A stretch of DNA of 53,689 bases, taken from IMG/VR virus record IMGVR_UViG_3300037313_001510. One strand, written 5' to 3'. The notes below the pieces were generated by a model. That model was not told where the DNA came from. It saw only the letters and a list, made by a program, of their open reading frames with translations, and made no database searches. The stretch is from a virus. Shown here one piece after another: positions 7,269 through 53,689 of the stretch; the first letter of the stretch is position 1; every line of letters starts with the position of its first letter. The position numbers and the translations under genes were made by a program.

Positions 7269-7269
7269 G

Positions 7270-7688: not shown

Positions 7689-7721
7689 CGGCGGTTTCCT
7701 TGTTCAGAAGTTTGGAGCAGA

Positions 7722-9693: not shown

Positions 9694-9696
9694 CTG

Positions 9697-11921: not shown

Positions 11922-11924
11922 GCG

Positions 11925-22283: not shown

Positions 22284-22285
22284 GA

Positions 22286-31856: not shown

Positions 31857-32746
31857 ACGAACATCCCCACCTGCTCGTCGTATCGCTCACGCGTCTTAGC
31901 CGACCTGCGATAGTCGGCAAATGGCGTCTTTCGCCAGATCATCGGCGAGTTCGCCCAGCGAGCCACGTCGCGCAGGAGCTGCTCATTCCAGTCGAAACGT
32001 GGATGCGGCCGGCGCTCAAGGGAGTTTAGCTTCATGAACGGCTGGACGTGCGGTTCGCCGCCCCAGGCCATCACCTCGCCGATGCGCTGCATGCATGCTT
32101 CGAAGGGTTCGTTCCCGATCAGGACATAGACGCGTTTCTGTCGGGGCGACACACCGGCAAGCATGCGCATGACACGCTCGACAAACGGACGTTCCGCCAT
32201 GTCGTCATACGCAAACCGCCACGGACCTCGATTGATGGTCTTCCATCGCGCGTAGACGTCATCGTCGAACGTGCGTGGCTCGAATCCGCTGTTGGCATCG
32301 AGCAGAGGCACGCCGGCCGACATGTAGCGCGCCACGATGTGTTCCTGATAATCAGCGGGCAAGGCCGATAGGTTGTTGTCGCACAGCACAGGCCGAACCG
32401 GGAAATCCGGCAGCAGCGTGAACGCCTTGCCCTCCATCTTCGGCACGATGCAGAACCAGCAGCCGACCGGACAGCCACGGCTGGCGATCGTCGCCATCGG
32501 ATTGTGCCGTGCGACGACGTCGTCGATCGAACCACCGATTTCGGCCACATCGGCAAGGAAGTGCTTGCGCGTGAAGACGCCAGGGCCGCCAACCCGCACG
32601 TTCAGGCCATCAGCGCGATGCCAGCAGGCGCGCTGATAGGCGTCGTTAAGACGCCACGTGAAGGCCACTGAAATAAAGGCGGTGTCGCCTTCGATCCATT
32701 CGGCAATACCGCCCGACCAACGGCCAAGATCATAACCGTTGCTCAC
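31853..32746 (-). CDS. Radical-SAM-like enzyme, 297 aa
   Basis: CxxxCxxC cluster ASRGCPVGCWFCIVP (codons at 32450-32473), followed by VLCDNNLSAL, which resembles the DDNF motif of Elp3/B12-type radical SAM enzymes. Confidence 0.6.
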   Translation of the reverse strand: MSNGYDLGRWSGGIAEWIEGDTAFISVAFTWRLNDAYQRACWHRADGLNVRVGGPGVFTRKHFLADVAEIGGSIDDVVARHNPMATIASRGCPVGCWFCIVPKMEGKAFTLLPDFPVRPVLCDNNLSALPADYQEHIVARYMSAGVPLLDANSGFEPRTFDDDVYARWKTINRGPWRFAYDDMAERPFVERVMRMLAGVSPRQKRVYVLIGNEPFEACMQRIGEVMAWGGEPHVQPFMKLNSLERRPHPRFDWNEQLLRDVARWANSPMIWRKTPFADYRRSAKTRERYDEQVGMFV

Positions 32747-34686
32747 TCCGCCGCCTCCAGCACCAGCTCACGGCGCACGTTGCATTGTGCCAAAAGCTCG
32801 ATCATGCGCGGCGGCACGCTGTTGCCGACTAGGTGATATTTCTCCGTCTTGGTCAGCCGGCGCTTCCTGCCGTCGATCGTGATCTCGGCCGGCAACGCGC
32901 CAGGCCTGAAGCCATGCGCGGCCGCGCCCTCCTCCGGCTCCAGCATGCGGATGCCGATGTCGTCGATGTAGTGGCGCACGCCCTTGACGATCACCTCGAC
33001 GAGGCCGTAGCGCGCCTTGCCGGTCAGCGCGCCGAGCGGCTGGCGCACGTCGTCGTCCTGCTTGCCCGAGCCGAAATAGTGCTGCAGGAAGCCGAGGATC
33101 AGATGAGCATGGCTGCCGCCGGCCGCGATCGTCGCCAGCGGCTCCTCGATCGGCCGCCCATCCTGGTTGGTGCCATGCAGGTTGCCGAGCGTCGCCGCGA
33201 CGACGCCCTGCGTCGAGCCGAGCGTGACGATGGTCGACACAGGATCCTCGGCCGAGCGACCCGGCGCGCCGGTGTTATGCTGCGCCAGGAAGGCCGCCAC
33301 AAGCGCCGCCTTGCTGCCGCCGACCTGCGTGCCCGCCGGCTCCTCGAGGTCGAGCACGCGCGGCGCCTGCCCTTCCCGCTCGCCATAGCCGGTCTGGATC
33401 AGGCTGGCCGCCACCACCGCATGCCGCGGCGCGCCGGCCATGACCGTGTCGAGCGGCTCGGTCGGCATGGTGCCGACGCCGTTCTGGTTGAATTTCGTTA
33501 GATGCGCGGCGACCAGCAGCCGATCTTCCTTGCCCGTCGTCGTGCCGAGCGGCTCGGCGAGGTCGCGCGGTGCCGATTGTGCGGCACGCCCACCGGCGCC
33601 GACGATGGTCGCGCCAAGCACCGCCATCCCCGACGATGTGTGCAGCGTGTTGATCGGCTCTTCGGCCGAATTGACGCCGTTGCGCGCCGCCGCGCTCTGC
33701 TGGTCCGTGCGAATCAGGACCGGCGCCACCACGGCCATCTCGCCGCGATGCGCGGCGGTCAGCGTGCGCAGCGGTTCCGCCGCGTCGTGCACGCGGTCGT
33801 CGCCGGCATGGGTGATCGGCACGATGAACGGCTTTGCCGCGTCGACGACGTAGCGCATCACGCCGCGCGCCGTGCGCCGCAGCGTCGCCTCGGCCAGCGG
33901 CTTCTTGCGCCCGAAGATCGACTTCACCGGCAGCGACCAGTCGATGATCGTGTGCGCGCCGACCCACGGCTTCAGGCCGAGTCGCTTCGCCTCCTTACGC
34001 GGCGCATGCGTGCGCGCCGGCCACACGATCGACCGGCCATCCGCCTGGGCGATGCCGAAGAAGCGTTTCCTGATCGTCGGCACGCCATAGTCGGCGCAGA
34101 CCAGCACGCGGTGCTCGAAATTGTAGCCGAGGCCGCGCATATGCTTCAGCCAGGCGCGCCAGATCCGGCCCTTGTGGCGCGGGTCCGGGATCAGCCATTG
34201 CTCGGCGACCGGCACCCGCTCGCCCTTGGCCGCGACTGACCCGTCGAGCCGCAGCACGCGCCCGCTCGCCGGGTCGCGCTTGGCGATCAGCGGCCCCCAG
34301 GTGGTGATCTCCTGCACATTCTCCATGGTGATGGTCTCGGGCCGCACGGTGCCCGCCCAGCGGCAGATCACCCACGCCAGCGAGCGCCGCCGCTTCGACA
34401 CCGGCTTCGAGCCCTTGGCGACGGAGAAATGCGTGCAGTCGGGCGAGGCGTGCATCGCGCGTACGCCGCGCCCGGCAGTCACCTTGCGGGGATCGGCCTC
34501 GAACACGTCGCAGCGCAGGTGCCTGGTGTGCGGATGCCGCCTCTCGTGCACAGCGACCGCGACCGGATCGTGGTTGATGGCGACATGGACATGGAAGCCG
34601 GCATCCTCCAGCCCGTCGCAGCCACCGCCCATGCCGGCGAACAGCACGACCGTCATGCGATTGTCGAGCGAAAATGGTGCGTTCAT
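32743..34686 (-). CDS. DNA (cytosine-5) methyltransferase with about 8 tandem TRD-like modules, 647 aa
   Basis: Motif I LFAGMGGG, IV SPDCTHFS, VI ENV, VIII TIRKRFF, X GNSVPP. The variable region carries repeated E-P-x-x-T-(L/I/V) modules. Confidence 0.85.
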   Translation of the reverse strand: MNAPFSLDNRMTVVLFAGMGGGCDGLEDAGFHVHVAINHDPVAVAVHERRHPHTRHLRCDVFEADPRKVTAGRGVRAMHASPDCTHFSVAKGSKPVSKRRRSLAWVICRWAGTVRPETITMENVQEITTWGPLIAKRDPASGRVLRLDGSVAAKGERVPVAEQWLIPDPRHKGRIWRAWLKHMRGLGYNFEHRVLVCADYGVPTIRKRFFGIAQADGRSIVWPARTHAPRKEAKRLGLKPWVGAHTIIDWSLPVKSIFGRKKPLAEATLRRTARGVMRYVVDAAKPFIVPITHAGDDRVHDAAEPLRTLTAAHRGEMAVVAPVLIRTDQQSAAARNGVNSAEEPINTLHTSSGMAVLGATIVGAGGRAAQSAPRDLAEPLGTTTGKEDRLLVAAHLTKFNQNGVGTMPTEPLDTVMAGAPRHAVVAASLIQTGYGEREGQAPRVLDLEEPAGTQVGGSKAALVAAFLAQHNTGAPGRSAEDPVSTIVTLGSTQGVVAATLGNLHGTNQDGRPIEEPLATIAAGGSHAHLILGFLQHYFGSGKQDDDVRQPLGALTGKARYGLVEVIVKGVRHYIDDIGIRMLEPEEGAAAHGFRPGALPAEITIDGRKRRLTKTEKYHLVGNSVPPRMIELLAQCNVRRELVLEAAE

Positions 34687-35231
34687 CGTTCCGCCTTCAG
34701 CCATGCGCCAAAGCTCGCGCGCAGCGCTTTCCACGCGTGCGCCGCCCTGGCGTCTTCGTTGAGTTCCGCGCGCGAGGTCACCCCGAGGATCGAGCGCACC
34801 TTCTGCGCCGCGCGCTCATTGTTCAGCGGCGGCTCGAGCCCGTGCCGCTCCGCCAGGAATTGCTGGAAGCGCCGCTCCGCGCATTTGATCGCGCATTCGG
34901 CGGCGAAATCCTTCGGGTCGCGCACAGGCGCGTTACTTGCCTCGTCGAAGGCCTGGCCGGCCTTCAACTCGCGGATCGCGGCAAAGGCCTGGTCGAGCAG
35001 GGTGAGCAGGAAGCCGACATAGTCGGGCGCATCGGCCATGAAGATCACTTCCGCAACGCTCGCCGCATCGAACCGTGCCAGCACGAAGCGCTCGCCATTG
35101 CCGGCCTCGGCCTCGATCAGCGCGCCGTTCTCGTCATGCGCGCGCGTCCACCGTGCCGGCGCGATCGCCGCATAGGCCGTGCGGACCGCCTTGAGACGGG
35201 CAGCATCGGGCGAGCGCGCGGCGGCATTCAT
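34683..35231 (-). CDS. Hypothetical protein, 182 aa
   Basis: Start reset to MNAAARS. ATGA-coupled on both sides. Confidence 0.55.
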   Translation of the reverse strand: MNAAARSPDAARLKAVRTAYAAIAPARWTRAHDENGALIEAEAGNGERFVLARFDAASVAEVIFMADAPDYVGFLLTLLDQAFAAIRELKAGQAFDEASNAPVRDPKDFAAECAIKCAERRFQQFLAERHGLEPPLNNERAAQKVRSILGVTSRAELNEDARAAHAWKALRASFGAWLKAER

Positions 35232-36860: not shown

Positions 36861-37687
36861 GCCGCACCGCCAGTCTCGCGTTCGGCGAGCAGGTCAACGA
36901 ACCAGAATTTCTCGACCTTGCGGATGTCGACAGCGGCAATATTTTCGATGATGAAGCGTCGGATGTCGCGCCGGTGAATCCACCAGAAATCGTCCGTGGC
37001 TGTCGCGTCCCGCCGTTTCGCCCGCAGCCAGCCCTTGGCGATCCATCCGCTTACGGTCTTACGGTCGACGCCCATGACGCCAGCAAGCTGGTTGGCGTTG
37101 AGATGATGCGGATCGGTGCGATCGGCGCCGAGCCGCTTCAGCTTGACGACGATCGCCGTCTCGGTCCGCTCGAATCCCTGCTTTTTCAGGAGCCGCCGCA
37201 GCGAGGCCGGCGATTTGTGAGCATTCTCGCCGAGCAGGTCGAGTTCGGCCTCGCTCCATGGCGGCTGCTTGAAGCGCGGCGTCACCAGGCCGAGTTTCGC
37301 CGCCCGTTTCGAGATCCACCAGCGCGGCCGGCCGCAGGTCGCGGCGCAAGCCTGCACGTCTTTCTTGGTCGGCGTCTTCTGGTAGGCGCGGCGTATGATA
37401 TCGTCGATCGCGGCGCTCGACGCCCACGCCTGCCGCTCATTGACCTTGCCGTTGGCGCAGGGGATGCGAAGACCAAGGATCGCCGCGCGCTGATAGATCG
37501 ACGACGCCGAGCGCCCTGGGAGCACCGCCAGGCAGGCCGAGACGCCGCCGGTCGCGTAATGCTCGCGCAGCAGCTTTTCCTCGCGTCCGGTCCAGAACCG
37601 CCGGGCTCCGGCGCGCATTTCGCCGACGACCGGATTGAGGTCGAGCAATTCGCGGATACCGCCGACTTCGCGCGCGATGGCGTTCAT
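36857..37687 (-). CDS. DNA-binding protein with two SANT/Myb-like repeats and a MerR/excisionase-type HTH, 276 aa
   Basis: WTGREEKLLREHY and WSEAELDLLGENA repeats. HTH segment LNANQLAGVMGVDRKTVSGWIAKGWL. Confidence 0.5.
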   Translation of the reverse strand: MNAIAREVGGIRELLDLNPVVGEMRAGARRFWTGREEKLLREHYATGGVSACLAVLPGRSASSIYQRAAILGLRIPCANGKVNERQAWASSAAIDDIIRRAYQKTPTKKDVQACAATCGRPRWWISKRAAKLGLVTPRFKQPPWSEAELDLLGENAHKSPASLRRLLKKQGFERTETAIVVKLKRLGADRTDPHHLNANQLAGVMGVDRKTVSGWIAKGWLRAKRRDATATDDFWWIHRRDIRRFIIENIAAVDIRKVEKFWFVDLLAERETGGAA

Positions 37688-39111
37688 GCCGGCACCTCGC
37701 CGGCGGCTTCGATGAGGCGCCCAAGCTCAGCCAAGCGCTTGGCGCCGCCGACCGAGAGTTCCCGGCCGGCCCAGATCAGGCCGCGTTCCTTCAGCATTTC
37801 GAACAGTTTGCCGTCGCATTTCGCGCCGGCTGCCACCGCCGAGAGCAGATCGAATTCGGCGCGCTCGTCGGTCATCACCGATGGGCGAATGGAAAGGGAC
37901 GCCGGTACGGCAAGCGGCTGCGGGGATGCCGTGGCCTCGCCCTCCTCCGCCGGGCCGAACATCGTGGCGTTCTCGAACACCTTCCAGTCGACGCGCAGCA
38001 CCTCGTGCGGGCCGTCATAGGCTTCCGAGCCGTCCGGCTGAGGCCGCAGCTCCCAGACGAACCAGGCGGTGTTCATGCGGCTCGACGCCTCCGGGCCGTC
38101 CCAGCCGTCGCGGTGCATCATCGGCAGGCGCCGGCTGAAGACGTAGGTCATCGCTGGCGGATTGTCGTCGAGGGCAAAGCAGCGGTCGGGATCGTCGAAG
38201 CCGCACAGGAAATTCAGGTTCAGCAGCAACGCCATGCGGCGCGGCCGGTGCGCGCGCAGCGCATGCGCGACGAAGGCGTTGAGATCGGTGCCATAGGGCG
38301 GATTGGTGACAATGTCCGGCCGCTCCGGATCGTCGGCGCGCGCCGCGCTGGCGAGAAAATTCTCGACGCGCTGCAATTCGCCGTCCTTGGTCGCGGTGCC
38401 ATAGTCGACCAGGTCGGCAAGCTCGACCTCGTAGCCGGCATCTTCCAGCATGCGGCTGATCGCGCCCTTGCCGCAGGCCGGCTCCAGCACACACTTCGAA
38501 AACCGCATGAAGGAGAGCAGCGTGCGCATCGCCTCCGGCGGCGTCTCGTAAAGGTTGTTGCCGCGCTCGGCGGCGGTGGCGCTGTCGGTGCCGACGGCGG
38601 CGCGCAGGTTGGCGGCACGCTTGAGCCCTGCCCGCGTCGGTTCGCTGCCGGCTGCCAGCATCTGGTCGAGCGCGCGGCGCACGATGCCAGGATCCTGTTC
38701 GATGACGTCGCGCATCTGGCGCGCCTCGAACACTTCCTTGCGGGTAAGCCCGGCATCTTCGGCTGTCGGAACCTTGTTCTCGGCCGGAACAAGGTCGGTG
38801 CGCTGGCCCTTCCTGCCGATCTCGCCGCGTCCCTGTGCGGCATCATATTCATCGGCCAGCCGGCGCTTCGCCATGCTTTCGATTTCGAGCGAGTCGGCCT
38901 GCACGCGATAGGTCGCGGCGATCAGCTCGTCATGCGCACGCTTGGCCTTCTGCAGGCGAGCCGTGCGCTTGGCCGCGTCATAGGTGGCCGTCGCCATGTC
39001 GCGCGCGGCCAGCACCTCAGCGGCGCTGGTGGCGCGCGCGAGCGCCGCCGCCGCCTCTTTCACCAGAGACGGCAGCGGCTTCTGTTCGGCGGTGGTGACA
39101 GCTTTTGACAT
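37684..39111 (-). CDS. DNA amino-methyltransferase (N6-A or N4-C), 475 aa
   Basis: Motif I VLEPACGKGAIS lies about 60 aa before motif IV IVTNPPYG. Long N- and C-terminal extensions. Confidence 0.75.
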   Translation of the reverse strand: MSKAVTTAEQKPLPSLVKEAAAALARATSAAEVLAARDMATATYDAAKRTARLQKAKRAHDELIAATYRVQADSLEIESMAKRRLADEYDAAQGRGEIGRKGQRTDLVPAENKVPTAEDAGLTRKEVFEARQMRDVIEQDPGIVRRALDQMLAAGSEPTRAGLKRAANLRAAVGTDSATAAERGNNLYETPPEAMRTLLSFMRFSKCVLEPACGKGAISRMLEDAGYEVELADLVDYGTATKDGELQRVENFLASAARADDPERPDIVTNPPYGTDLNAFVAHALRAHRPRRMALLLNLNFLCGFDDPDRCFALDDNPPAMTYVFSRRLPMMHRDGWDGPEASSRMNTAWFVWELRPQPDGSEAYDGPHEVLRVDWKVFENATMFGPAEEGEATASPQPLAVPASLSIRPSVMTDERAEFDLLSAVAAGAKCDGKLFEMLKERGLIWAGRELSVGGAKRLAELGRLIEAAGEVPA

Positions 39112-42891: not shown

Positions 42892-43413
42892 TCATCGACG
42901 AACACCCCCTGGCCGCAGCGCTTTGCGCGCCCCGTCGACCGGTCGAAAACGCACCACTGCACTGCGCTCGAAGTCCGGCAGATCGCCGAGATCGTCGGGG
43001 AGGTTCTTCAGCGCCGTGCGGTCGCGCTCGTCGAGCACGGCGCGGGCGAGCGGCCCGGCGCCGATCTTGCGCACGTAGTCGGCCAGCGCGAACAGCACCG
43101 CTTCCTCATTGGAGCATCGCTCGTAACTGGCGACGGCGTTGAGCAGGATCAGCGCGTATTCGGAAAGGGAGACGGAGCAGCCGGCCGGGGTTTGGGTGGC
43201 GACCGGCCGCTCCGTCTTTTCGCGCGCCCCCGCGCGAAACTCATCAAGGCCCTCGGTGTAGTGCTGAAATGCTGCCGAGGCTTGTTCAGCCTCGGCGCCG
43301 CGGTCAGGCGCTTGGGGAGCCATGACCTCCGAAGCGCAAGGCGCGCAGGAGGACTTCGCGGAACGCGGCACGAGCCGCTCGGAAAATCCGGCGGGCGCGA
43401 CAAGCTGCGTCAT
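42892..43413 (-). CDS. Hypothetical protein, 173 aa
   Basis: ATGA-coupled to the cro-like gene. Confidence 0.5.
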   Translation of the reverse strand: MTQLVAPAGFSERLVPRSAKSSCAPCASEVMAPQAPDRGAEAEQASAAFQHYTEGLDEFRAGAREKTERPVATQTPAGCSVSLSEYALILLNAVASYERCSNEEAVLFALADYVRKIGAGPLARAVLDERDRTALKNLPDDLGDLPDFERSAVVRFRPVDGARKALRPGGVRR

Positions 43414-43679
43414 GCTGCGCTCTCCTGGTTGACCGGAATATCGGCCGGCTCGATCGGATAGAGGTCCGGCCGCAGCACGTGCCGCGAAATGCCAGAGGCT
43501 CGTTCGATCGGGATCGCCATTTCGGCAGGGATCATGCCACGCAACTTCCAGGTCGAGACGTGGCTCCGCGTCTTGCCGACCATCTCGGCGAGCCTCGCCT
43601 CGCCCCCCACGGCATCACAGGCTTTGGTGAGCGCCAGGCGGCGCTCGGCCTTGATTTGTTCCTTGAGGTCTTGATTCAT
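43410..43679 (-). CDS. Cro-like / YdaS-family HTH regulator
   Basis: GGEARLAEMVGKTRSHVSTWKLRGMIPAEMAIPIERAS. Divergent from the repressor gene. ATG at 43679, with GTG 43688 as an alternative. Confidence 0.65.
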   Translation of the reverse strand: MNQDLKEQIKAERRLALTKACDAVGGEARLAEMVGKTRSHVSTWKLRGMIPAEMAIPIERASGISRHVLRPDLYPIEPADIPVNQESAA

Positions 43680-43690
43680 GGTCGCCACTC

Positions 43691-43753
43691 ATACAAATGT
43701 AGGCAGCGTTGTCAATACCATTGTAGGCAACGCGCCGAGTACAATCGTAGGCA
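43691..43753. promoter_or_regulatory. OR-like operator cluster with divergent promoters
   Basis: - Operators: ATACAAATGTAGGCA (43691), ATACCATTGTAGGCA (43715), GTACAATCGTAGGCA (43739), at exactly 24-bp spacing.
- Leftward promoter: TTGACA (43715-43710), 16-nt spacer, TATGAG (43693-43688).
- Rightward promoter: TACAAT (43740-43745). Confidence 0.7.
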
Positions 43754-44091
43754 TGAGTACATTTGGCGATCGGGTAAGGGCGGAACGCCTCGCGCAGGGG
43801 CTGAGCTATCAAGAGCTTGCCGATCGCGTCAGCAAGGCGGCCGGCATCAAATGCCCACGTGTCACCATTGAGAAGATCGAGGACCGCTCGTCGAAAATGT
43901 CGCAATGGTCGATCAGCATAGCTGCGGCGTTGAACGTCGACCATGACTGGCTGCTCACGGGCAAGGGTCAGAAGAAAATTCTGACCAGCATCGACAAGCG
44001 GCTTCGCCGGCTGACGCCGGACGCCTCGGAGCGCCTGCATCGACAGATCAATCTTCTGATCGACGATGAGGAAAGTTCGAAGACGCACTAA
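43753..44091 (+). CDS. cI-like repressor (XRE-type HTH, no S24 peptidase domain), 112 aa
   Basis: FGDRVRAERLAQGLSYQELADRVS ... IAAALNVDHDWLLTGKG. The ATG lies 7 nt after TACAAT. Confidence 0.7.
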   Translation: MSTFGDRVRAERLAQGLSYQELADRVSKAAGIKCPRVTIEKIEDRSSKMSQWSISIAAALNVDHDWLLTGKGQKKILTSIDKRLRRLTPDASERLHRQINLLIDDEESSKTH

Positions 44092-44727: not shown

Positions 44728-44763
44728 TGTCTACATTTGTATTTGACGTGCCTACGATTGTAT
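44728..44763. promoter_or_regulatory. OL-like operator pair (reverse orientation) with TTGACG hexamer
   Basis: TGTCTACATTTGTAT (44728-44742) and TGCCTACGATTGTAT (44749-44763) are reverse complements of the OR-type sites, with 1 mismatch each. TTGACG lies at 44743-44748. Confidence 0.6.
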
Positions 44764-44805: not shown

Positions 44806-44988
44806 ATGGCCAAAGATCCCAAGGCATGTCCTTTCGATCATCCGGTTGAATCCGGTTCGGCGATCGAGGCGATCAACGATCATTTCCACGGCGTCTGCAA
44901 GGACTGCGGCGCGCAAGGCCCGGAGCGCGACAGCTACGCCGCCGCGCTCGTCGCCTGGAATTCCCGCCGCCGGGAGCAACGCCATTGA
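44806..44988 (+). CDS. Lar-family restriction-alleviation-like protein, 60 aa
   Basis: KACPF...GVCKDCGAQGPERDSYAAALVAWNSRR follows the Lar pattern (CPFCG...C..CGA.GP....EAI.AWN.R). GGGAGAG SD. Confidence 0.5.
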   Translation: MAKDPKACPFDHPVESGSAIEAINDHFHGVCKDCGAQGPERDSYAAALVAWNSRRREQRH

Positions 44989-45227
44989 ACCCCGCCGAGC
45001 AGCTGATCGCCGAGGCGGCGAAATCCCCCGAGCACGAGGCGTGGATTTCGCGCCAGATCCTTGCCGGCCAAAGACCATCGCAGATCCTGGCGACGCTCGG
45101 CCGCGCGGTCGACCCGGCGGCGCTGCTGCGCCAGGCCGGCGGCGACGGCCCGGTCGGGCTCACGGTCGCCTGCGTCATCATGTTCGCGCTGCCCTTCTTC
45201 GCGCTCGGCTTCCTGCTGCCGACATGA
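44985..45227 (+). CDS. Tail-anchored membrane protein, 80 aa
   Basis: TTG start (TTGA overlap). C-terminal TM helix LTVACVIMFALPFFALGFLL. Confidence 0.5.
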   Translation: MNPAEQLIAEAAKSPEHEAWISRQILAGQRPSQILATLGRAVDPAALLRQAGGDGPVGLTVACVIMFALPFFALGFLLPT

Positions 45228-45556
45228 GGACGCGCGACAAGCTGGCCGCCGAGCTTCGAAAGGTTGCCGCGAAGGCTTCGCCGGAGAACGCCGCGAAATA
45301 TGAGGCTTTCGCCCGGCGCGCGGCGACCGGCGAGTTCGACGACTATGCCGACACCTATGCCTGCCCGATCACCCAACTCTATTCGGAACTGACGGCCGCC
45401 GGTTTCAGCAAGTTCGCCGCGCGCGTCGCCGCTGGCCAGTTCGACGCGACCAAAGAGGAAAGCGATGAATGGGCGCGCAGCCCGTCCGGCCAGGATGCTG
45501 CCAAGCAACTCTCGCCAGAGATGCGCGAACTTCTTGGCCTGAAACTGAACAACTAG
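45224..45556 (+). CDS. Hypothetical protein, 110 aa
   Basis: Start reset to MRTRDKL (ATGA overlap). Confidence 0.55.
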   Translation: MRTRDKLAAELRKVAAKASPENAAKYEAFARRAATGEFDDYADTYACPITQLYSELTAAGFSKFAARVAAGQFDATKEESDEWARSPSGQDAAKQLSPEMRELLGLKLNN

Positions 45557-45571
45557 GAGGAAGGAAGTCGG

Positions 45572-45814
45572 ATGCCGCCTGAGATCAGCAATAAGGAAGC
45601 CATCGAAATGATGAACCGTTGCAAGGACGAGATTTTGTCCCTGCGAGCGCGCATCGATCATCTCCAGCCGAAGGCTGACGCCTATGACAACCTCGTTACT
45701 GTGCTGGGGCTGTTGCCTCGCAAGAGCATCGGTATTGGGGAAGACTTGGTGTGGACGCTTAACAAGCGCATCAGCGAATTGCAGCCGAAGCCAGAAGTAA
45801 GCCAGTCGGCATGA
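45572..45814 (+). CDS. Hypothetical protein, 80 aa
   Basis: AGGAGGAAGGAAG SD. Visibly lower GC than its neighbours. Confidence 0.6.
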   Translation: MPPEISNKEAIEMMNRCKDEILSLRARIDHLQPKADAYDNLVTVLGLLPRKSIGIGEDLVWTLNKRISELQPKPEVSQSA

Positions 45815-45861
45815 CCCGGAAAGGCATGCAGGTTTCCATGTTCTCAATGGAGTAAACGCCA

Positions 45862-46308
45862 ATGGAAGACAGGATCACTCACCTGACCGCCGACATCGTC
45901 TCGGCCTATGTCTCGAACAACGCGGTTCCGGCCGCCCAGCTGCCGGCGCTGATCGCCAGCGTCGATGCTTCCGTGCGCGGCCTGGGCGGTGCCGCTGCGG
46001 CCAAGCCGGCCGCATCCTTGGTGCCGGCCGTCAACCCGAAGCGCTCGATCTTCCCCGACTTCATCATCTGCCTTGAGGACGGGAAGAAATTCAAGTCGCT
46101 GAAGCGCCACCTCGCTACCGACCATGGCCTGACGCCGGAAGCCTATCGCGAAAAATGGGGCCTGCCCGCCGACTATCCAATGGTGGCGCCTAACTACTCC
46201 AAGACGCGCTCGGCGCTGGCCAAGGCCTCCGGCCTCGGCCGCGTCGGCAAGCCCTACGCCACCACGCGCCTGGACCTGTCCTCCGAAGCTGGCCGCAGGG
46301 TGGCGTAG
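45862..46308 (+). CDS. mucR: MucR/Ros-family zinc-finger transcriptional regulator
   Basis: IICLEDGKKFKSLKRHLATDHGLTPEAYREKWGLPADYPMVAPNYS. The second zinc ligand is Asp (CLEDG), as in some Mesorhizobium Ml paralogues. Confidence 0.85.
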   Translation: MEDRITHLTADIVSAYVSNNAVPAAQLPALIASVDASVRGLGGAAAAKPAASLVPAVNPKRSIFPDFIICLEDGKKFKSLKRHLATDHGLTPEAYREKWGLPADYPMVAPNYSKTRSALAKASGLGRVGKPYATTRLDLSSEAGRRVA

Positions 46309-46312
46309 GAGG

Positions 46313-46531
46313 ATGAACGAGCGGCTGAACCGCGCCACGCGGCGCGAGACGATCGTGCCGGTGTTCCAGGGCGAGCCGCGCCACACCTGCGCGCTCTATC
46401 CCGATTGCGAGTGCGGGAGCGACTGCACCGCCGGCGACGAGCGCCGGCGGGCCATCGCCATTGCCATCGGCCTTGCCGTCCTCACCGCCGCGCTCGCCGC
46501 AGGCCTTGTAATATGGAGCCTCCATACATGA
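46313..46531 (+). CDS. Tail-anchored Cys-rich membrane protein, 72 aa
   Basis: CALYPDCECGSDC followed by TM helix IAIAIGLAVLTAALAAGLVIW. Confidence 0.5.
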   Translation: MNERLNRATRRETIVPVFQGEPRHTCALYPDCECGSDCTAGDERRRAIAIAIGLAVLTAALAAGLVIWSLHT

Positions 46532-46614
46532 GCAACTTCAACTGGCTCTTCTGCCTCGCCATGTCGGCCAGCGTCTCTTTCGAGGCCTGGTTCGTTTGCC
46601 TGGTGCTGCGCTGA
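46528..46614 (+). CDS. Possible 28-aa hydrophobic peptide
   Basis: ATGA-coupled. Translation MSNFNWLFCLAMSASVSFEAWFVCLVLR. Confidence 0.25.
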   Translation: MSNFNWLFCLAMSASVSFEAWFVCLVLR

Positions 46615-46946
46615 TGGCTATTTCCGCACCAGATATCACCGCCGAGATCTATCGGCTGCTCGGCGAAAGCATGGATCCGCTGGAGCGCAGGAAGCGCATC
46701 GAGCAGCTGATCCACAATGCGCTGCACGGCACGATGCGGACTTTCGAAAGCCGCGTCGCCGCGCTGGAGGAGCTTGCGCACGAGCCGTTCGATTTCTCCG
46801 ACCTGATCAGGCGTATCGAAGCTCTTGAGATCGACGGCCATCACGAAAAACGGATGGCCGAGGCCGAGGAATCTATCCGGCGCGGTGCTCGCACATCGAA
46901 ACACCGGTTCAACCCGTCCTCCGAGGCCGAGCAGAGCGGGGCGTAG
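46614..46946 (+). CDS. Hypothetical protein, 110 aa
   Basis: Start reset to MAISAPD (TGATG overlap). Confidence 0.5.
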   Translation: MAISAPDITAEIYRLLGESMDPLERRKRIEQLIHNALHGTMRTFESRVAALEELAHEPFDFSDLIRRIEALEIDGHHEKRMAEAEESIRRGARTSKHRFNPSSEAEQSGA

Positions 46947-46950
46947 GAGG

Positions 46951-47199
46951 ATGGCCAATTTGCGCGTCGAGAATCCAGCGACCACCGAGACCTATCTGAA
47001 GGCGCTTGCCGAGTGCGGCGTGAAGTTGCCGCTCAACGTCGGCGCCGAACTCGGCGTCATCTACGATGCCGAAGGCCGCGACGTCATCACGATCGACGTG
47101 AACAACGAACGCGCCGACAGCCAGGTCGAGACCATAGCGCTCTGGATTGTCCTTGCCGTCAACACATGCGGCGGGTTTCGGGCGGAGGCGCAGCGATGA
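46951..47199 (+). CDS. Hypothetical protein, 82 aa
   Basis: Start reset to MANLRVE, directly after TAGGAGG. Confidence 0.5.
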   Translation: MANLRVENPATTETYLKALAECGVKLPLNVGAELGVIYDAEGRDVITIDVNNERADSQVETIALWIVLAVNTCGGFRAEAQR

Positions 47200-47462
47200 G
47201 CGCCGCATCGGACCTGCACAACCTGCTTTCCGCCCGCTTCGTGCGTGACGTGATCGGCCCGTCCGTCAAGAACGGCGCCACCTACGCCGGGCTGCTGGTT
47301 CTCTTCGAGAGCGTCCAGTTCGAAGCGCTCGATGGCGCTGTGCAGGCTTTCCTCGCAGAGGCCGGCGACGACCGGCGCGACGCGGCGGCCATCGCCCTCG
47401 CCGCCGGCCAAGTCGACCGCCTTACCGCCGCGCCCGACCTCTATTCGGAGGACCTCTGGTGA
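47196..47462 (+). CDS. Hypothetical protein, 88 aa
   Basis: Start reset to MSAASDL (ATGA overlap). Confidence 0.5.
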   Translation: MSAASDLHNLLSARFVRDVIGPSVKNGATYAGLLVLFESVQFEALDGAVQAFLAEAGDDRRDAAAIALAAGQVDRLTAAPDLYSEDLW

Positions 47463-48226
47463 GCGACCGCCCCATCCTTTTTTCCGCCCCGATGGTGCGC
47501 GCCCTGCTCGCCGGCAGGAAGACGCAGACGCGGCGCGTGCTTCGGGCAAGGCCAGGCATGACCATCGCCGACGCCACGGTCGACGCCGGCCCAGCCTTCG
47601 GCGGGATCGGCAGGCGGCTGGAATTGCCAGTCGATAAGCTGAAGGTGCCCTTCGCCGTGGGCGACCGCCTCTATGTCCGCGAGGCTTGGGCGACAGGCAG
47701 CGGCCCGAACGGACCACAGATCAGTTTCCGGGCGACACCGGATTTCTTTGACATCGACGCATGGGACGGTCCTAACGAAGGGGTAGGCCCGTCGTTCAAC
47801 TATGATCATTGCCCCTGCGCCCATTTTCACCACTGGCTGCCGGACATCCTTTCCAATGATGGGCCATGGCGCACGCCGCTACACATGCCGCGCTGGGCTT
47901 CCCGCCTGACGCTGACCGTCACCGGGGTGCGCGTCCAGCGGCTGCAGGAGATCACCAACGAGGACTGCATCGCCGAAGGCGTTGATATCCATCCCAACGA
48001 AAATGCCCCTCGCATCGGCCCCGTGCTGGATGATTTTGCTCGGAAGCACGGTCTCATTTCTCACTATGGCGCACAGTATCGCGACCTGTGGGATCACCTC
48101 AACGCCGCGCGCGGCTTCGGCTGGGATGCCAACCCGTGGGTGATTGCCGTCAGCTTCGGCGTGGGTCGTCACAACATCGACGCCCACAATCCAACATCAG
48201 TTGCAACCAGAAGGAAACCAGCATGA
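47459..48226 (+). CDS. ASCH/PUA-like phage protein (tentative), 255 aa
   Basis: N-terminus PILFSAPMVRALLAGRKTQTRR is a common phage ASCH-like signature. GTG start. Confidence 0.55.
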   Translation: MSDRPILFSAPMVRALLAGRKTQTRRVLRARPGMTIADATVDAGPAFGGIGRRLELPVDKLKVPFAVGDRLYVREAWATGSGPNGPQISFRATPDFFDIDAWDGPNEGVGPSFNYDHCPCAHFHHWLPDILSNDGPWRTPLHMPRWASRLTLTVTGVRVQRLQEITNEDCIAEGVDIHPNENAPRIGPVLDDFARKHGLISHYGAQYRDLWDHLNAARGFGWDANPWVIAVSFGVGRHNIDAHNPTSVATRRKPA

Positions 48227-49152
48227 CAAGCGCAGTCCTGAAATCCATTGCCTCGCCGTCGATCCTGACCAAGGCCGATCCAACCAGCCCGGCCTTTCGC
48301 GTCGAAGGCCGGAACCGCATCTTCCTCAAGGCAGGCACGGTGATTGCCTTCGGCGCCGGCGGCGTCGAAAATCAGTCCGACCACGAGATCGCGATGCATG
48401 CGGGGGACCTGGTTGCCGGCCGCGACTTTGCCGTCTTCGCCAGCGACGAAGGCGTGGTGACGGCGGCGCCGGCCGGCGATGGCGTCGCCGAAGGCCTGAT
48501 CCAGATTGGCGGCTTCCATTACGCGCCGGGCGGCAACGCCACCGGCCGCTCGGGCGGCGACGGCGAGCCGGCCATCAATCCCTATTCATGCTGGGATTTG
48601 ACCTTCCGCCCGGCATGCCCGGATCCGCACGGCATGACGCTGGTCGACTTGCCGGACGATCGCCGGATCTGGGTCGACATCTACAAGCTGAACGTCAACC
48701 ATCTCGCCGGCACAAGCCGTTTCGGCGTGACGATCGCCGATGGCGTCGACCTGCCGTTCCGCACCGACATTCCGGGCCATTGCGACAGGCTGGACTACGC
48801 GACCGCGGTCGCGATCTATGCGCATCATGGCAAGCAGTTGCTGTCCTATGACGAATTCCGCGCCGCCGCCTTCGGCGTCACCGAAAACACCAGCGCCGAG
48901 CGCGATCCAAAAATAACCGGGCTCGACGCCGCCCGCACCTCGCAGCGCGGCCTGATGCAGGCGACCGGCAATCTCTGGGATTGGGGCCATGACGGCGATC
49001 CGGACAATCCCCGCGCGTCCATTTTCGGCGGCTCGTGGTGGGACGGCGGCGACGCCGGCTCCCGCTACGCGTACCTCGGCAGCTGGCCGGGGAACTCGTG
49101 CGACAACATCTCCGCGCGCGGCCGCAGTGACCACCTGAAACCTGCCGCCTGA
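48223..49152 (+). CDS. DGR target protein, 309 aa, C-terminal C-type-lectin/FGE-like fold carrying the VR
   Basis: The C-terminus GNLWDWGHDG...IFGGSWWDGGDAGSRYAYLGSWPGNSCDNISARGRSD contains the VR. ATGA-coupled to the upstream gene. Confidence 0.85.
   Translation: MTSAVLKSIASPSILTKADPTSPAFRVEGRNRIFLKAGTVIAFGAGGVENQSDHEIAMHAGDLVAGRDFAVFASDEGVVTAAPAGDGVAEGLIQIGGFHYAPGGNATGRSGGDGEPAINPYSCWDLTFRPACPDPHGMTLVDLPDDRRIWVDIYKLNVNHLAGTSRFGVTIADGVDLPFRTDIPGHCDRLDYATAVAIYAHHGKQLLSYDEFRAAAFGVTENTSAERDPKITGLDAARTSQRGLMQATGNLWDWGHDGDPDNPRASIFGGSWWDGGDAGSRYAYLGSWPGNSCDNISARGRSDHLKPAA
49013..49131 (+). repeat. DGR variable repeat (VR), 119 bp
   Basis: Gap-free alignment to the TR (offset 574). There are 10 mismatches, all at TR adenines. 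Confidence 0.9.
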
Positions 49153-49170
49153 CCGGCGCGAAAGCGCCGG
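49153..49170 (+). promoter_or_regulatory. GC hairpin with GAAA loop downstream of VR (DGR target-recognition hairpin; possible terminator)
   Basis: CCGGCGC-GAAA-GCGCCGG, 1 nt after the target stop and 22 nt after the VR end. Confidence 0.7.
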
Positions 49171-49196
49171 TAGAACCGACAGCCCGGAAAATCGCC

Positions 49197-49568
49197 ATGG
49201 CCATCATACGCGACGAGCATGCGGCCACGCCCGGGCTAGCGATCATCGACAAATACGAGGAAGCCGTGACCTATCTCTACCCGATCCTGCAATGCTGCCC
49301 GCGCGCGCATGGCAATGTCCGTGACGCGATGATGGCCGGCTTGTTCGATCAGGTCGGCCTGTTCTACCAGGCGGCGAAATCGCGGCAGCCTTCACGTCTT
49401 TATGCGGCGGACGCCAACCTGGCGACGCTGCGTTTCTGGTTGCGCTTCGCATCCGATCCAAAGCTCAGGATCGTCACCCCGAACCAGAGCCGGCATGCGC
49501 ATCGCCTGCTGGCCGAGGTCGGCGCGATGCTGGGTCAATGGATCAAGGGCGCGAAGGGCAACGGATGA
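49197..49568 (+). CDS. avd: Accessory variability determinant (Avd-like four-helix-bundle protein), 123 aa
   Basis: Supported by size, its position between the target and the TR, and helical basic composition. Confidence 0.75.
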   Translation: MAIIRDEHAATPGLAIIDKYEEAVTYLYPILQCCPRAHGNVRDAMMAGLFDQVGLFYQAAKSRQPSRLYAADANLATLRFWLRFASDPKLRIVTPNQSRHAHRLLAEVGAMLGQWIKGAKGNG

Positions 49569-49586
49569 ACGGGGACATGATGCGGC

Positions 49587-49705
49587 GCGCATCCATTTTC
49601 GGCGGCTCGTGGTGGAACGGCGACAACGCCGGCTCCCGCTACGCGAACCTCGACAACTGGCCGGAGAACTCGAACGACAACATCTCCGCGCGCGGCCGCA
49701 GTGAC
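49587..49705 (+). repeat. DGR template repeat (TR), 119 bp
   Basis: AAC-rich donor copy of the VR with 24 adenines. A 14-nt G/C run lies at 49686-49699. Confidence 0.9.
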
Positions 49706-49900
49706 GGCCCATACCCGGCTCGGCGGCGGTCACGGCCACGCCGGCCCATCCACGTTGCGACATCCGCCTTGCGGCGGATGCGCATTGGTGGTCAGCCCGG
49801 TCATCCGGCTTCGGCGAACACATTGCACGGTCCGGTACAGCGGGGAGTAGCGGGCTTGCCCGTCGAAACCCGCGACCGGCAATTCAGCGGATGGCGACCC

Positions 49901-50911
49901 ATGGGCAAGAAGCACCGCAACCTCATCGGCGCGATCACCGCCGACGCCACCATGCTCGAGGCGCTGCGGCTGACCAGCCGAGGCAAGCGGCTGACGCCGG
50001 CGCGGCTGGAATTCAAGGAGTTTTCCATCCTCAACCTCGACCGCCTGGCGCATGACATGGCGAGCGGCGCCTACGTCCAGGGCGCGCCGCGCGAGTTCAA
50101 CATCTTCGATCCGAAGCTGCGCGTCATCTCGGCGCTGCCATTCCGCGACCGGATCGCCCAGCACGCCTTGTTCAAGATCATCGCGCCGATCTTCGAGGCG
50201 ACATTGCTGCCGAACACCTTCGCCTGCCGGCCGGGCAAGGGCACGCACGCCGCGGCGATCAGGCTGCAGGCCGACATACGGCGACTGACGCGCCGGCATG
50301 CGGACGGCAATGCCGCGCCGCTCTTCGTGCTCAAGACGGACTTTTCCAAGTATTTCGCGTCGATCGACCGCGCCGTGCTGTGGGGCTTGATCGAAGCGAA
50401 GATTAGCTGCGGCGCGACGCTGCGCCTGATCGAGGCGATGCTGCCGCGCCATGGAATCGGCCTGCCGATCGGCAGCCTAGTGTCGCAGATTTTCGCCAAT
50501 GTCTATGGCGGCATCGTCGACCGGCACCTGCAGCAGGATCTCGGCGAGCGTCACTGGTACCGCTACATGGACGACATGGTCGTGCTCGGCCGCTCCTCGG
50601 CGCATCTGCATGCGGTCAAGGCGTCGATCGAAACCCTCTCGCGCAACCAGCTCGGCTTGCGCTTTTCGAAATGGAGCATCCAGCCGGCAGGGCGCGGCGT
50701 CAACTTCGTCGGCTATCGCATCTGGGCCACGCATAAATTGCTGCGGCGCGACAGCGTCACCAGGGCGCGCCGCAAGATCAGGGCCTATCGCGCCGCCGGC
50801 GACGACGAGCGGCTGCACAGGTTCCTTGCCGCGTGGACGGGCCATGCCGGCTGGGCCGACAGCCGCAATCTCATGCGCAGCCTGGCGATCGAAGCGCGGG
50901 AGGACCGATGA
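49901..50911 (+). CDS. DGR reverse transcriptase, 336 aa
   Basis: RT motifs FRDRIAQHAL, IGSLVSQIFANVY (DGR-typical) and YRYMDDMVVLG. Confidence 0.9.
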   Translation: MGKKHRNLIGAITADATMLEALRLTSRGKRLTPARLEFKEFSILNLDRLAHDMASGAYVQGAPREFNIFDPKLRVISALPFRDRIAQHALFKIIAPIFEATLLPNTFACRPGKGTHAAAIRLQADIRRLTRRHADGNAAPLFVLKTDFSKYFASIDRAVLWGLIEAKISCGATLRLIEAMLPRHGIGLPIGSLVSQIFANVYGGIVDRHLQQDLGERHWYRYMDDMVVLGRSSAHLHAVKASIETLSRNQLGLRFSKWSIQPAGRGVNFVGYRIWATHKLLRRDSVTRARRKIRAYRAAGDDERLHRFLAAWTGHAGWADSRNLMRSLAIEAREDR

Positions 50912-51159
50912 TCGACGAGGCCCGAATCATCCCCCGTTTCATGACCGATGGCGAGCTGCGCGCCTGGTTCGGCCTGTCCGAGCGCGCGCTGAACCGGCTG
51001 CGCGCCACGCGCGAATTTCCCTGTCGTGACCAGCAGATCGGCAAGACCGACCGCCGCTCGGTCGAAGTTTTCTTTGACCGGCGCGCCGGTTTGGATTCTC
51101 CTGCCCTCGCCGGCGGCAATCCCGCCGCCGTCGATGGAAGGGAATATCTCGATGACTGA
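50908..51159 (+). CDS. AlpA/excisionase-type HTH protein (xis candidate), 83 aa
   Basis: MTDGELRAWFGLSERALNRLRATREFP. ATGA overlap with the RT stop. Its 3' end overlaps the int start. Confidence 0.6.
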   Translation: MIDEARIIPRFMTDGELRAWFGLSERALNRLRATREFPCRDQQIGKTDRRSVEVFFDRRAGLDSPALAGGNPAAVDGREYLDD

Positions 51160-52366
51160 ACAGAGAAAGGACCGGCCGGGCTACAAATACCGGCCGCGCT
51201 CCGACGGCAGCCGCGCTCACTACTGGGTGCCGCAACGCGCCGTGAAGCATGCGCCGGCAGCGCTCGACCCGCGGCCGATCACCGGGGCGATGATCGAGGC
51301 GGCGCTTGCCGCCGATCCAGACCTCGCCGATGCCGACGCCGCGATCGCAAAATTCTGCCGCGACTGGACCGATGAATTGCGCGGCGACCTCGAGGTGAGG
51401 GCGAAGGGGCCGGTCTATGACGGCTCGGTCTCCTCGCTGATCCTCTACTATCGCACGCATGAAAAATCGCCATTCAAGAAACTCAAGCATTCGACGCGTA
51501 TCCGCGACTATGAGCCGTCGCTGCGGCTGATAGCGAAAAGCGTCGGCGAGCGGCTGGTGCGCAACCTGGTCGGCTCGGATTTCACCCGCTGGTTCGAGTC
51601 CTGGGGCTCGAAGGGCCGCGCCAGGCGCGCCCACGGTGCGATCCGCAAGCTGCGCGCCGTGCTCTCCTTCGGCACTACCGAGCGACTGGACGGCTGCCGC
51701 CAGGCGCGCGAGATCCTGTCGCTGATGGAATTCGAGACGCCCGCCGCCCGCCGCGTCAAGATGGAGTACCGGCATGCGCTCAAGATCTGCGCCATGGCGA
51801 TACGGCTTGAGCGGCCATCGATCGCGCTCACCCAGGCGCTGCAGTGGGACACGGCGCTCAGACGCATCCACATCATCGGCGAGTGGCTGCCAATCGAGCA
51901 AGGCGAGGCCGGCGGCATCGTGCGCGGCCGCACCAAATGGCGCGGACTGACGGTGGCCGACATTTCGGGCAAGCAGGTGCTCACCGTGCCGCTGACCAGC
52001 AAGGGCAAGGACGCCACAGACCACGATCTCGGCAAGTGCGCGCTGGTGCAGATGGTGCTAAAACGGGTGAGGCTGCCCGCCTTCGGCCCGCTTATCGTCT
52101 CGGAAACCACCGGACTGCCTTACCGGGAAAACTATTACGCCACCGACTGGCGCGAGATCGCCACGGCGGCCGGCGTTCCCGAAACCGTCTGGTCGATGGA
52201 TGCGCGCGCCGGCGCGATCTCGGAAGCCGAGGAAGCGACCGACATCGAATCGGCCAGGAAAATGGCAGGCCACACCACGATCAAGACGACGCAAGGCTAC
52301 GTGAGAAACCGCGACCTCGCCAACAACGTCAAGGTCGCCGAAGCCCGCGCCAGGCTGAGGAAGTGA
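51152..52366 (+). CDS. int: Tyrosine integrase, 404 aa
   Basis: The C-terminal catalytic region MDARAGAISEA...AGHTTIKTTQGYV carries the R...H-x-x-R...Y pattern. Adjacent to attP. Confidence 0.85.
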   Translation: MTEQRKDRPGYKYRPRSDGSRAHYWVPQRAVKHAPAALDPRPITGAMIEAALAADPDLADADAAIAKFCRDWTDELRGDLEVRAKGPVYDGSVSSLILYYRTHEKSPFKKLKHSTRIRDYEPSLRLIAKSVGERLVRNLVGSDFTRWFESWGSKGRARRAHGAIRKLRAVLSFGTTERLDGCRQAREILSLMEFETPAARRVKMEYRHALKICAMAIRLERPSIALTQALQWDTALRRIHIIGEWLPIEQGEAGGIVRGRTKWRGLTVADISGKQVLTVPLTSKGKDATDHDLGKCALVQMVLKRVRLPAFGPLIVSETTGLPYRENYYATDWREIATAAGVPETVWSMDARAGAISEAEEATDIESARKMAGHTTIKTTQGYVRNRDLANNVKVAEARARLRK

Positions 52367-52437: not shown

Positions 52438-52485
52438 TGGAGCGGGTAGCGGGAATCGAACCCGCATATTCAGCTTGGAAGGCTC
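52438..52485 (-). other. attP core: 3' about 48 nt of a tRNA-Gly(UCC) gene
   Basis: The - strand reads GAGCCTTCCAAGCTGAATATGCGGGTTCGATTCCCGCTACCCGCTCCA: anticodon loop CUUCCAA, T-arm, acceptor 3' strand, CCA. There is no D-arm or 5' acceptor strand. Confidence 0.75.
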
Positions 52486-53158: not shown

Positions 53159-53689
53159 ATGGCCGACACGCTTGGCGATTATCTGAAGGCACTCGAAGGC
53201 GTCGAGACCGGACGGCGCGCGCAGCCAGGACAAGCCGTCTATATCCGTATCGACGGCAACCGCTTCTCCAAGTTCACCAAGGGCATGGAGCGCCCGTTTG
53301 ATCCGCGCATGTCGGCGGCGATGATCGAGACCACGAAAGGGCTGGTGACTGAGTTCGGTGCCGCGCTTGGCTATACCCAGTCGGATGAGATTTCGTTGGT
53401 GCTTTGGGAAGACGCGCCGCAGAGCGAACTGGCCCACGGCGGCAAGTTTCAGAAGCTGGCGAGCCGCACGGCGTCAAAGGCCACGCATCTTTTCTACAAG
53501 GCGGCAAGGGCCGCTGGCTTGGTCGAATTCATCGACCGCCAGTTCCCCGAGTTCGACGCGCGCGCCTTCGCATTGAGCAAAGAGGATGCCGGCAAGGCCA
53601 TCTATTGGCGCGAGATGGATGCCAGAAAGAACGCGGTCCAGATGACGGCGCGTTGCCACTTCTCGGCCAAGGCCCTGCACCAGAAGCAT
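53159..53689 (+). CDS. Thg1-like protein (TLP), N-terminal 177 codons; continues at 128..379 after removing the overlap
   Basis: AGGAG SD. VYIRIDGNRFSKFTKGMERPFDPRMSAAMIETTKGLVTEFGAALGYTQSDEISLVLW matches the Thg1/TLP catalytic core (RIDG..F..FT...PFD...M..T......YTQSDEISL). Confidence 0.85.
   Translation, partial: MADTLGDYLKALEGVETGRRAQPGQAVYIRIDGNRFSKFTKGMERPFDPRMSAAMIETTKGLVTEFGAALGYTQSDEISLVLWEDAPQSELAHGGKFQKLASRTASKATHLFYKAARAAGLVEFIDRQFPEFDARAFALSKEDAGKAIYWREMDARKNAVQMTARCHFSAKALHQKH
53563..53689. repeat. Right copy of the 127-bp exact terminal duplication
   Basis: Identical to 1..127. Confidence 0.95.

Follow-up and report, generated by a model that had tools for sequence, protein, structure and literature searches.

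A diversity-generating retroelement at the integrase end of a putative early operon in a lambda-like temperate phage

The window analysed here is the whole 53,689-nucleotide stretch of IMG/VR virus record IMGVR_UViG_3300037313_001510, the genome of a lambda-like temperate siphovirus of 53.6 kb that probably infects Mesorhizobium or one of its close relatives. Positions 48223-50911 hold a complete, canonical diversity-generating retroelement (DGR) of the BPP-1 type, with one target gene, bAvd and a template repeat (TR) as well as a reverse transcriptase (RT) (Table 1). An earlier reading of the letters alone, here called the sequence-only reading, had placed this cassette in the early/recombination operon beside xis, int and attP and not in the tail module. 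We find the same: the cassette belongs to a chain of coupled open reading frames (ORFs) on the plus strand, whereas the late genes lie on the minus strand.

Results

Organisation of the retroelement

The variable repeat (VR) and the TR form a 120-nt pair that differs at ten positions, all ten of them adenines in the TR. With 24 adenines among the 120 nt, the chance of such a pattern is about 1e-7. Seventeen VR codons are matched to TR codons that contain adenine, seven of which are AAC. The two repeats begin to diverge after ...AGTGAC, a boundary that resembles an initiation of mutagenic homing (IMH) element. Homing in BPP-1 requires a hairpin with a GC stem of 7–10 bp and a GRNA loop (PMC3240598). 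The hairpin at 49154-49171 fits this rule in its GC-rich stem, its four-nucleotide GRNA loop and its location just 3' of the VR, and a comparable hairpin follows every VR in the relatives examined. Judged by these features, it is the target-recognition element of the DGR. By analogy with BPP-1, the non-coding spacer between TR and RT presumably belongs to the DGR RNA.

Searching with the full-length TR (A to N) and with 40-mers allowing up to three mismatches revealed no second VR-like copy anywhere in the window, in agreement with the sequence-only reading, which had seen none in the tail genes. A pattern combining the TR (A to N) with the VR flank gave zero matches in metagenome and viral contig collections, neither of which contains this phage.

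The target is an Mtd-family protein

The N-terminal ~200 aa of the target had been described as uncharacterised, which no longer holds. Residues 25-125 match the Pfam family mtd_2nd (PF21916, 1.5e-11, above the gathering score), the β-sandwich second domain, and residues 6-305 match phrog_11262, annotated 'tail protein', at 1.5e-80. In tblastn the target is 38–40% identical to the Mtd proteins of BPP-1, BMP-1 and BIP-1 across 95% of the query. When a 74-sequence family profile was compared with PDB Mtd (E 2e-75), its positions 11-299 aligned with Mtd residues 53-379. Foldseek gave template-modelling (TM) scores of 0.83–0.84 for the AlphaFold model of the target (pLDDT 87, pTM 0.87) against 1YU0-1YU4 (E 1e-28). 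Both profile and model thus support the overall Mtd fold and the C-terminal C-type lectin domain that carries the VR.

Ahead of the sandwich there are only ~12–24 residues, and pLDDT is low for residues 1-11. Neither a hydrophobic stretch nor a lipobox was seen by eye at the N-terminus. As the part before residue ~50 of BPP-1 Mtd likewise diverges in most homologues elsewhere, Mtd N-termini look like phage-specific docking parts. The sequence-only reading had suggested a detachable receptor-binding adaptor as one role, and this fits the target, since Mtd itself is such an adaptor. We also considered whether loss of the N-terminal domain is tied to relocation of the cassette and rejected this idea: in either context, Mtd homologues mostly diverge before residue ~50. 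A docking partner in common with BPP-1 was likewise rejected, the fibre gene bbp9 being absent from the window.

The cassette is part of an early-left ORF chain

The window contains five copies of a 14-nt motif, TGCCTACRWTTGTA, where 0.2 are expected. They are confined to the cro/cI switch (three copies) and to 44728-44762 (two copies), each copy being oriented with its downstream operon. The helix-turn-helix (HTH) assignments of the cro-like and cI-like genes are weak, and the two genes show a divergent repressor/cro layout with repeated operators at both sites. The repressor probably starts at ATG 43754; the earliest possible start of its ORF is 43678. Operators common to the switch and to 44728-44762 make it plausible that the PL-type promoter proposed near 44.74 kb in the sequence-only reading exists and is under repressor control.

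Between 45862 and 49152 the ORFs abut or overlap by 1–4 nt and leave no intergenic gap for a further promoter. The GTG start of the gene at 47459 overlaps the preceding stop, and an ATGA at 48223-48226 couples that gene to the target. A second ATGA, at 50908-50911, couples the RT stop to the xis-like start, and the xis-like stop (51157-51159) in turn overlaps the start of int (51152; 51134 in the JGI call). The last two overlaps had been pointed out before and are borne out. From this uninterrupted chain we infer that one transcript would run from the ~44.74-kb promoter through the DGR, xis and int. Scanning 43–53.7 kb for promoters returned one promoter-like site, on the wrong strand, and none on the plus strand; such a scan is uninformative in a GC-rich genome. 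Terminator-like sites in the same region were no more frequent than in shuffled sequences, and every plus-strand site lay within an ORF.

The gene coupled to the target had been called ASCH/PUA-like. The coupling stands, but the label has no profile match: neither Pfam nor NCBIfam returned a hit for 47459..48226. Its model (pLDDT 88) gave ASCH-family proteins as all of the top 16 Foldseek matches (1t62, 3s9x, 2z0t, 5guq and YqfB among them), at weak scores (E 5e-3 to 0.5, TMq ~0.3). The gene belongs to phrog_874, a family with more than 7,900 homologues, none of which has a Pfam domain. Given the size of this family, which is not DGR-specific, its association with the DGR may be coincidental. 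Homologues adjoin the DGR in the relatives L011 (12616-13299), L058 (14261-15004) and L079 (9264), either just after the RT or just before mtd.

Table 1. Features of the window, starting with the retroelement and its operon
Feature	Position	Strand	Evidence or remark
DGR target, 309 aa, Mtd-family, β-sandwich and C-type lectin domain	48223..49152	+	
VR	49012..49131	+	target codons 264-303
Hairpin CCGGCGC-GAAA-GCGCCGG	49154..49171	+	7-bp GC stem, GAAA loop, two nt past target stop
bAvd	49197..49568	+	PF22296 1.5e-26; phrog_3206; 52% identity to BPP-1 Avd
TR	49586..49705	+	24 adenines; seven AAC codons
Non-coding TR-RT spacer, 195 nt	49706..49900	+	position only
DGR reverse transcriptase, 336 aa	49901..50911	+	RVT_1 4e-15; phrog_1423 3e-105; 54% identity to Brt
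xis-like small gene	50908..51159	+	position; 90% identity to int-adjacent counterpart in L148
Tyrosine-recombinase-type integrase	51152..52366	+	phrog_1 'integrase' 5.5e-12; beside attP
attP core, tRNA-Gly 3' ~41 nt, anticodon loop to CCA	52438..52478	-	
phrog_874 protein, weakly ASCH-like fold	47459..48226	+	phrog_874 4e-53
Replaceable module, 4.39 kb: five small ORFs, ASCH-like gene, whole DGR	46520..50906	+	L148 carries DUF5131 and one small gene (2.2 kb) instead
Early-left operon genes including MucR/Ros regulator	44806..46531	+	this part shared with L148
Two TGCCTACRWTTGTA copies around TTGACG (44743-44748), OL/PL-type promoter candidate	44728..44762	+	
cI-like XRE-type repressor	43754..44091	+	weak RstR/DicA matches; JGI 112-aa call; position relative to operators
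Three TGCCTACRWTTGTA operators, OR-type site between cro and cI	43692..43753	-	24-bp spacing
cro-like HTH gene, first of minus-strand early and late run	43410..43688	-	YdaS_toxin, Phage_CI_repr (weak) matches in L073; carph-isopro domain 1e-5
Small terminase	29005..29655	-	
Large terminase	27017..29008	-	
Major capsid	22286..23317	-	
Major tail	16882..17397	-	
Tape measure	12371..15403	-	
Seven genes without family match, 3' of tape measure	4612..12374	-	tail-tip/fibre by position
Distal tail-fibre-type gene, late operon end	4612..6225	-	N-terminal ~220 aa conserved, C-terminus variable among relatives; position after tape measure
O-antigen acyltransferase/acetylase	3594..4580	-	phrog_6705 2e-50, Acyl_transf_3; directly after distal fibre gene
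Endolysin	2716..3297	-	
Terminal direct repeat	1..127		identical to 53563-53689

Integration site, genome form and late genes

Family searches gave no match for the xis-like gene. The integrase matches phrog_1 over residues 264-387, with no Pfam, NCBIfam or PDB sequence match. No intact tRNA is present at attP; the partial tRNA-Gly without an intact tRNA is the pattern expected of a free phage genome. Nor was an att repeat found within the window, which fits a free circular genome and not an integrated prophage. Integrated relatives have a minus-strand tRNA, which is intact, after int where the prophage ends.

The genome is complete and circularly permuted, with a unit of 53,562 bp and a 127-bp terminal direct repeat. 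Another contig of the same phage from a different JGI sample (L073) has a different permutation and confirms the circular map, giving the unbroken order int, two small genes, Thg1, lysozyme, acyltransferase and a 537-aa fibre. On the circle, the target stop and the fibre gene lie 9,022 nt apart through attP, on opposite strands and convergent. The distance of more than 36 kb given in the sequence-only reading was therefore an artefact of the linear map.

On the plus strand, the cI-like repressor is followed by a run of ~17 genes that ends with the xis-like gene, int and attP. The minus-strand run continues from the cro-like gene through regulatory, AAA, GapR and methylase genes to the structural genes, with portal and protease genes between the terminases and the major capsid in run order. 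The tail-tip and fibre genes do lie on this other strand, as had been said. The seven genes concerned gave no match in family searches; we read them as tail-tip/fibre genes from their position and from the product of 4612..6225, which has the conserved-N/variable-C architecture of a conventional receptor-binding fibre.

Within the structural module, between capsid and tail genes, 19536..22499 (minus strand) encodes a 987-aa protein, part of which resembles a sialyltransferase (phrog_4603, 6e-31) and whose C-terminal domain is that of a methyltransferase (PF08241, 4e-9), an unusual position for its domains. In the early-right region, 32743..34734 (minus strand) encodes a C-5 cytosine DNA methyltransferase (PF00145, 2e-23), and the 475-aa product of 37684..39111 (minus strand) appears methyltransferase-like by eye, without a Pfam match.

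A sibling phage lacks the cassette

The sibling phage L148, a 47-kb IMG/VR contig, resembles the phage in int (86% identity), xis (90%), MucR (83%), tape measure (64%) and fibre proteins (79–84%). A tblastn map shows that it lacks mtd, avd, RT and the ASCH-like gene. In blastn, the DNA match to L148 over 45880-46519 ends at 46519, and homology starts again at 50907, one base ahead of the xis start; the right edge of the intervening module is exactly the ATGA of RT stop and xis start. Since a sibling with the same xis/int and tail carries none, the DGR cassette is, on this comparison, swappable cargo. The tail of L148, being without Mtd, also indicates that this tail type needs no Mtd-like protein, which makes the protein an accessory.

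The MucR/Ros zinc-finger regulator in the shared part of the operon (45862..46308, plus strand; PF05443, ROS_MUCR, 6.7e-49) is also found in L075. The acyltransferase at 3594..4580 is absent from L148, as is the C-terminal half of the fibre; it is probably a lysogenic-conversion gene altering the likely receptor. Just past attP, a 260-aa Thg1-like gene of the tRNA-His guanylyltransferase family (PF04446) spans the window junction (53159..53689 into 128..379, plus strand). L148 lacks this gene too, which has the look of att-proximal cargo and may serve in tRNA repair.

The placement recurs in Hyphomicrobiales prophages

More than 1,100 proteins of ~300 aa make up the target family, and most of them come from Mesorhizobium, Bradyrhizobium, Rhizobium and other Hyphomicrobiales. 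For a viral survey, ORFs were called in 69 IMG/VR loci and clustered, and a close set of 56 non-redundant loci (Mtd identity of at least 49%) was compared. Early markers (replication, methylase and other genes, for example DUF5131, beta clamp, ParB-MT-A70, AAA and GapR) lie within six genes of the cassette in 44 of the 56; terminase or portal genes do so in two. Upstream on the opposite strand, 24 loci have a CP76/YmfL-like regulator, and a same-strand integrase follows no more than six genes downstream in 15.

Sequenced genomes show the arrangement as well. Mesorhizobium sp. B2-3-4 reads cI(S24) ... DUF5131, DUF4031, mtd, mtd, avd, RT, a 96-aa gene, int, an intact tRNA-Asp and host genes. Eight genome loci (from Mesorhizobium, Rhizobium, Rhizomicrobium, Nitrobacter and uncultured Hyphomicrobiales/Rhizobiaceae) have the same layout with other integrases, four of them with a tRNA downstream. 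Six more, including Shinella, Rhizobium and Agrobacterium, have a minus-strand tRNA downstream, and no integrase was detected there by the queries used. Among the relatives the position of the cassette within the operon varies, the target overlaps or nearly abuts its upstream gene, and ParB-MT-A70 and N6_N4 methylases also occur beside the DGR. The layout is thus not peculiar to this phage: dozens of related prophages have it, and it is the typical one in a clade of Hyphomicrobiales prophages.

In most relatives, mtd is present as two or three tandem paralogues upstream of avd (three in L086 and L104); this phage has one. In L071, L072, L006 and L002 (at about 10000-12000), the VRs of both mtd genes match a single TR with adenine-specific changes, and behind each VR stands a separate GC-stem hairpin whose loop is GAAA or GGAA.

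A contrast group with Mtd identity of 46% or less, from beta- and gamma-proteobacteria and others, has its cassettes after tail-fibre, internal virion or capsid genes and before the lysis genes bbp4 and endolysin; in one case the cassette lies between terminase and portal. In the cultured phages P12026 and S-CBS3, the Mtd homologue is in the structural module. A position between homologues of the large terminase and the portal, a third kind, is that of the BPP-1-like DGR in L126 (Parvibaculum indicum, 7344-16956), which comprises mtd, avd, brt and bbp4.

Discussion

We consider it probable, with moderate confidence, that the element is a standard DGR diversifying an accessory, Mtd-type receptor-binding protein, and that the early-left operon expresses this protein along with xis and int and so supplies it to virions in trans. 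Loss of the repressor, on induction or infection, would allow the PL-type promoter to transcribe the operon. The target, Avd, TR RNA and RT would then be made alongside Xis and Int and not with the late genes. Avd and RT would make a cDNA from the TR RNA, inserting random nucleotides opposite adenines, and this cDNA would replace the VR under the guidance of the GAAA hairpin and the VR 3' end. In this way as many as 17 codons that contain adenine, among them seven AAC codons, could be rewritten on the binding face of the lectin fold. The resulting trimeric, Mtd-like protein would join virions in trans as an accessory receptor-binding protein, while the conventional fibre encoded by 4612..6225 stays in place. 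Early transcription of the target and its attachment to the virion are the two presumed steps of this scheme.

Several observations weigh against it. The N-terminal β-prism (Mtd residues ~1-52) has no counterpart in the target, with the alignment starting at Mtd residue 53, and the window contains no homologue of the BPP-1 fibre bbp9. The closely related tail of L148 can do without the target protein, and none of 12 viral contigs with a homologous fibre appears in the list of Mtd contigs. The identical 309-aa target, VR included, is found on 7–9 JGI metagenome contigs, so that VR turnover is not apparent at the consensus level. Lastly, consensus scans being uninformative, a promoter may lie inside coding sequence.

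This last point leads to a different account of expression, in which an internal and possibly late-activated promoter within upstream coding sequence drives the cassette or the target, and the early-operon location is an accident of insertion. The 4.39-kb module arrived in one piece, together with five small upstream ORFs in which such a promoter could lie, the place of the cassette in the operon differs between relatives, and sigma-70 consensus scans are unreliable at this GC content. However, the absence of any intergenic gap between 45862 and 49152, the equally tight junction of the target with its upstream gene in relatives and the lack of a promoter-like plus-strand site in the scan all argue the other way. 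We regard an internal promoter as unlikely, although deserving some weight.

Somewhat less credible to us is the proposal that the target is no virion component and acts as an early hypervariable binder in or on the infected or induced cell, for instance in anti-defence, superinfection exclusion or as a surface factor. It would suit a home among early and host-takeover genes, and draws on the clade-wide location of the cassette among methylases, DUF5131 and ASCH-like genes in an early operon, on the sibling that has the same tail and no cassette, on the conventional fibre whose variable C-terminus is already present, and on the missing β-prism. Yet the target is homologous end to end, β-sandwich included, to a known virion receptor-binding protein, and absence of the prism is not special, given that similarity to Mtd begins near residue 50 in most homologues. 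A surface location is countered by the N-terminus, in which no hydrophobic stretch or lipobox was seen by eye. A lysogen-surface or exclusion role, which the sequence-only reading had also raised, is disfavoured by the same apparent lack of an export signal and by the promoter, which looks repressor-controlled and would silence the protein in lysogens. More speculatively, and in our view more doubtful again, the Hyphomicrobiales DGR might have been re-purposed. An Mtd-fold protein made early under the lysogeny switch would then serve off the virion as a hypervariable binder of, for example, variable host defence or surface components, with diversification timed to induction and excision and not to the assembly of particles.

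That the DGR is an inert, decaying passenger kept only through its linkage to xis and int would agree with the identical VR on several contigs and with its absence from the sibling, but is highly improbable, as all ORFs and the hairpin are intact, ten of ten VR/TR differences fall on adenines, the RT shares 54% identity with the active Brt, and many lineages have conserved the cassette, frequently with two or three targets that are diversified.

Phage DGRs are commonly taken for devices of the tail module, with the target made together with the tail; the cassette described here, like those of dozens of Hyphomicrobiales prophages, sits in a putatively repressor-controlled early operon, joined to xis-int. 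If the transcription we propose is correct, diversification and the supply of the receptor-binding protein would be tied to the lysis-lysogeny switch and not to the late programme, and a receptor-binding protein could be an add-on from outside the morphogenetic operon. DGR cassettes would then be able to travel as att-proximal cargo, gained and lost without touching the tail. The sibling pair, one with and one without the cassette and with closely related tails, offers a natural comparison for the contribution of the accessory protein to host range. The element itself is known. A limited literature search returned no description of a DGR in an early or lysogeny operon or of rhizobial prophage DGRs; the placement, the probable regulatory coupling and the clade-wide conservation are thus undescribed as far as that literature shows, their novelty being unproven.

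Comparison with known systems

The overall organisation of the cassette closely resembles that of BPP-1. Both have the same four components in the same order (mtd-avd-TR-brt), with 54% identity for the RT, 52% for Avd and 38% for Mtd. In each, the VR lies at the C-terminal end of a C-type lectin fold, the changes are adenine-specific, and a hairpin with a GC stem and GAAA loop comes after the VR. In both, the cassette is att-proximal: the BPP-1 DGR is 1.7 kb from attP, on the late side. The contrast with the Bordetella paradigm drawn in the sequence-only reading was overstated in this respect. The cassette described here lies on the other side of attP, in a putative early operon. BPP-1 has the order attP, bbp1, lysis genes, brt-TR-avd-mtd and tail fibre bbp9, all in the late direction, with xis-int across attP. 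Its cassette thus follows bbp9 at the end of the late operon, whereas ours closes the early operon on the cI side and is fused to xis-int. Further differences are the lack of Mtd residues 1-52 in the target and the phages themselves, a podovirus and a lambda-like siphovirus with a tape measure. When the BPP-1 proteome was compared with the window, matches were limited to brt, avd and mtd, indicating that the cassette is common to both and that the phage backbones are unrelated.

Close counterparts are the Hyphomicrobiales prophage DGRs, such as those of Mesorhizobium sp. B2-3-4 and M. captivum (UniRef 'phage major tropism determinant'), whose targets are 72–76% identical to ours. They share the early-operon placement, and several loci end in RT, a small gene, int and a tRNA. 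They differ in mostly having two or three tandem mtd genes per TR, as opposed to one here, in their integrases and in the tRNA (Asp, Cys or Lys versus Gly).

Paired Mtd-like targets also occur in the Faecalibacterium phage Lagaffe_CP and other phage DGRs (PMC11792537). These targets are homologous to Mtd and paired, as in the relatives of our phage, and the host belongs to another phylum.

As an att-proximal, swappable module with sharp breakpoints that is absent from a sibling, the cassette is also reminiscent of lambdoid cargo. Lambdoid cargo (moron) positions flank attP, as in the lambda b region, the distal PL operon and the P22 gtr locus. The Thg1-like gene and the O-antigen acetyltransferase are likewise window-specific cargo around attP. 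In contrast to an independent transcription unit, however, the cargo here is a whole retroelement with its target, translationally coupled to xis.

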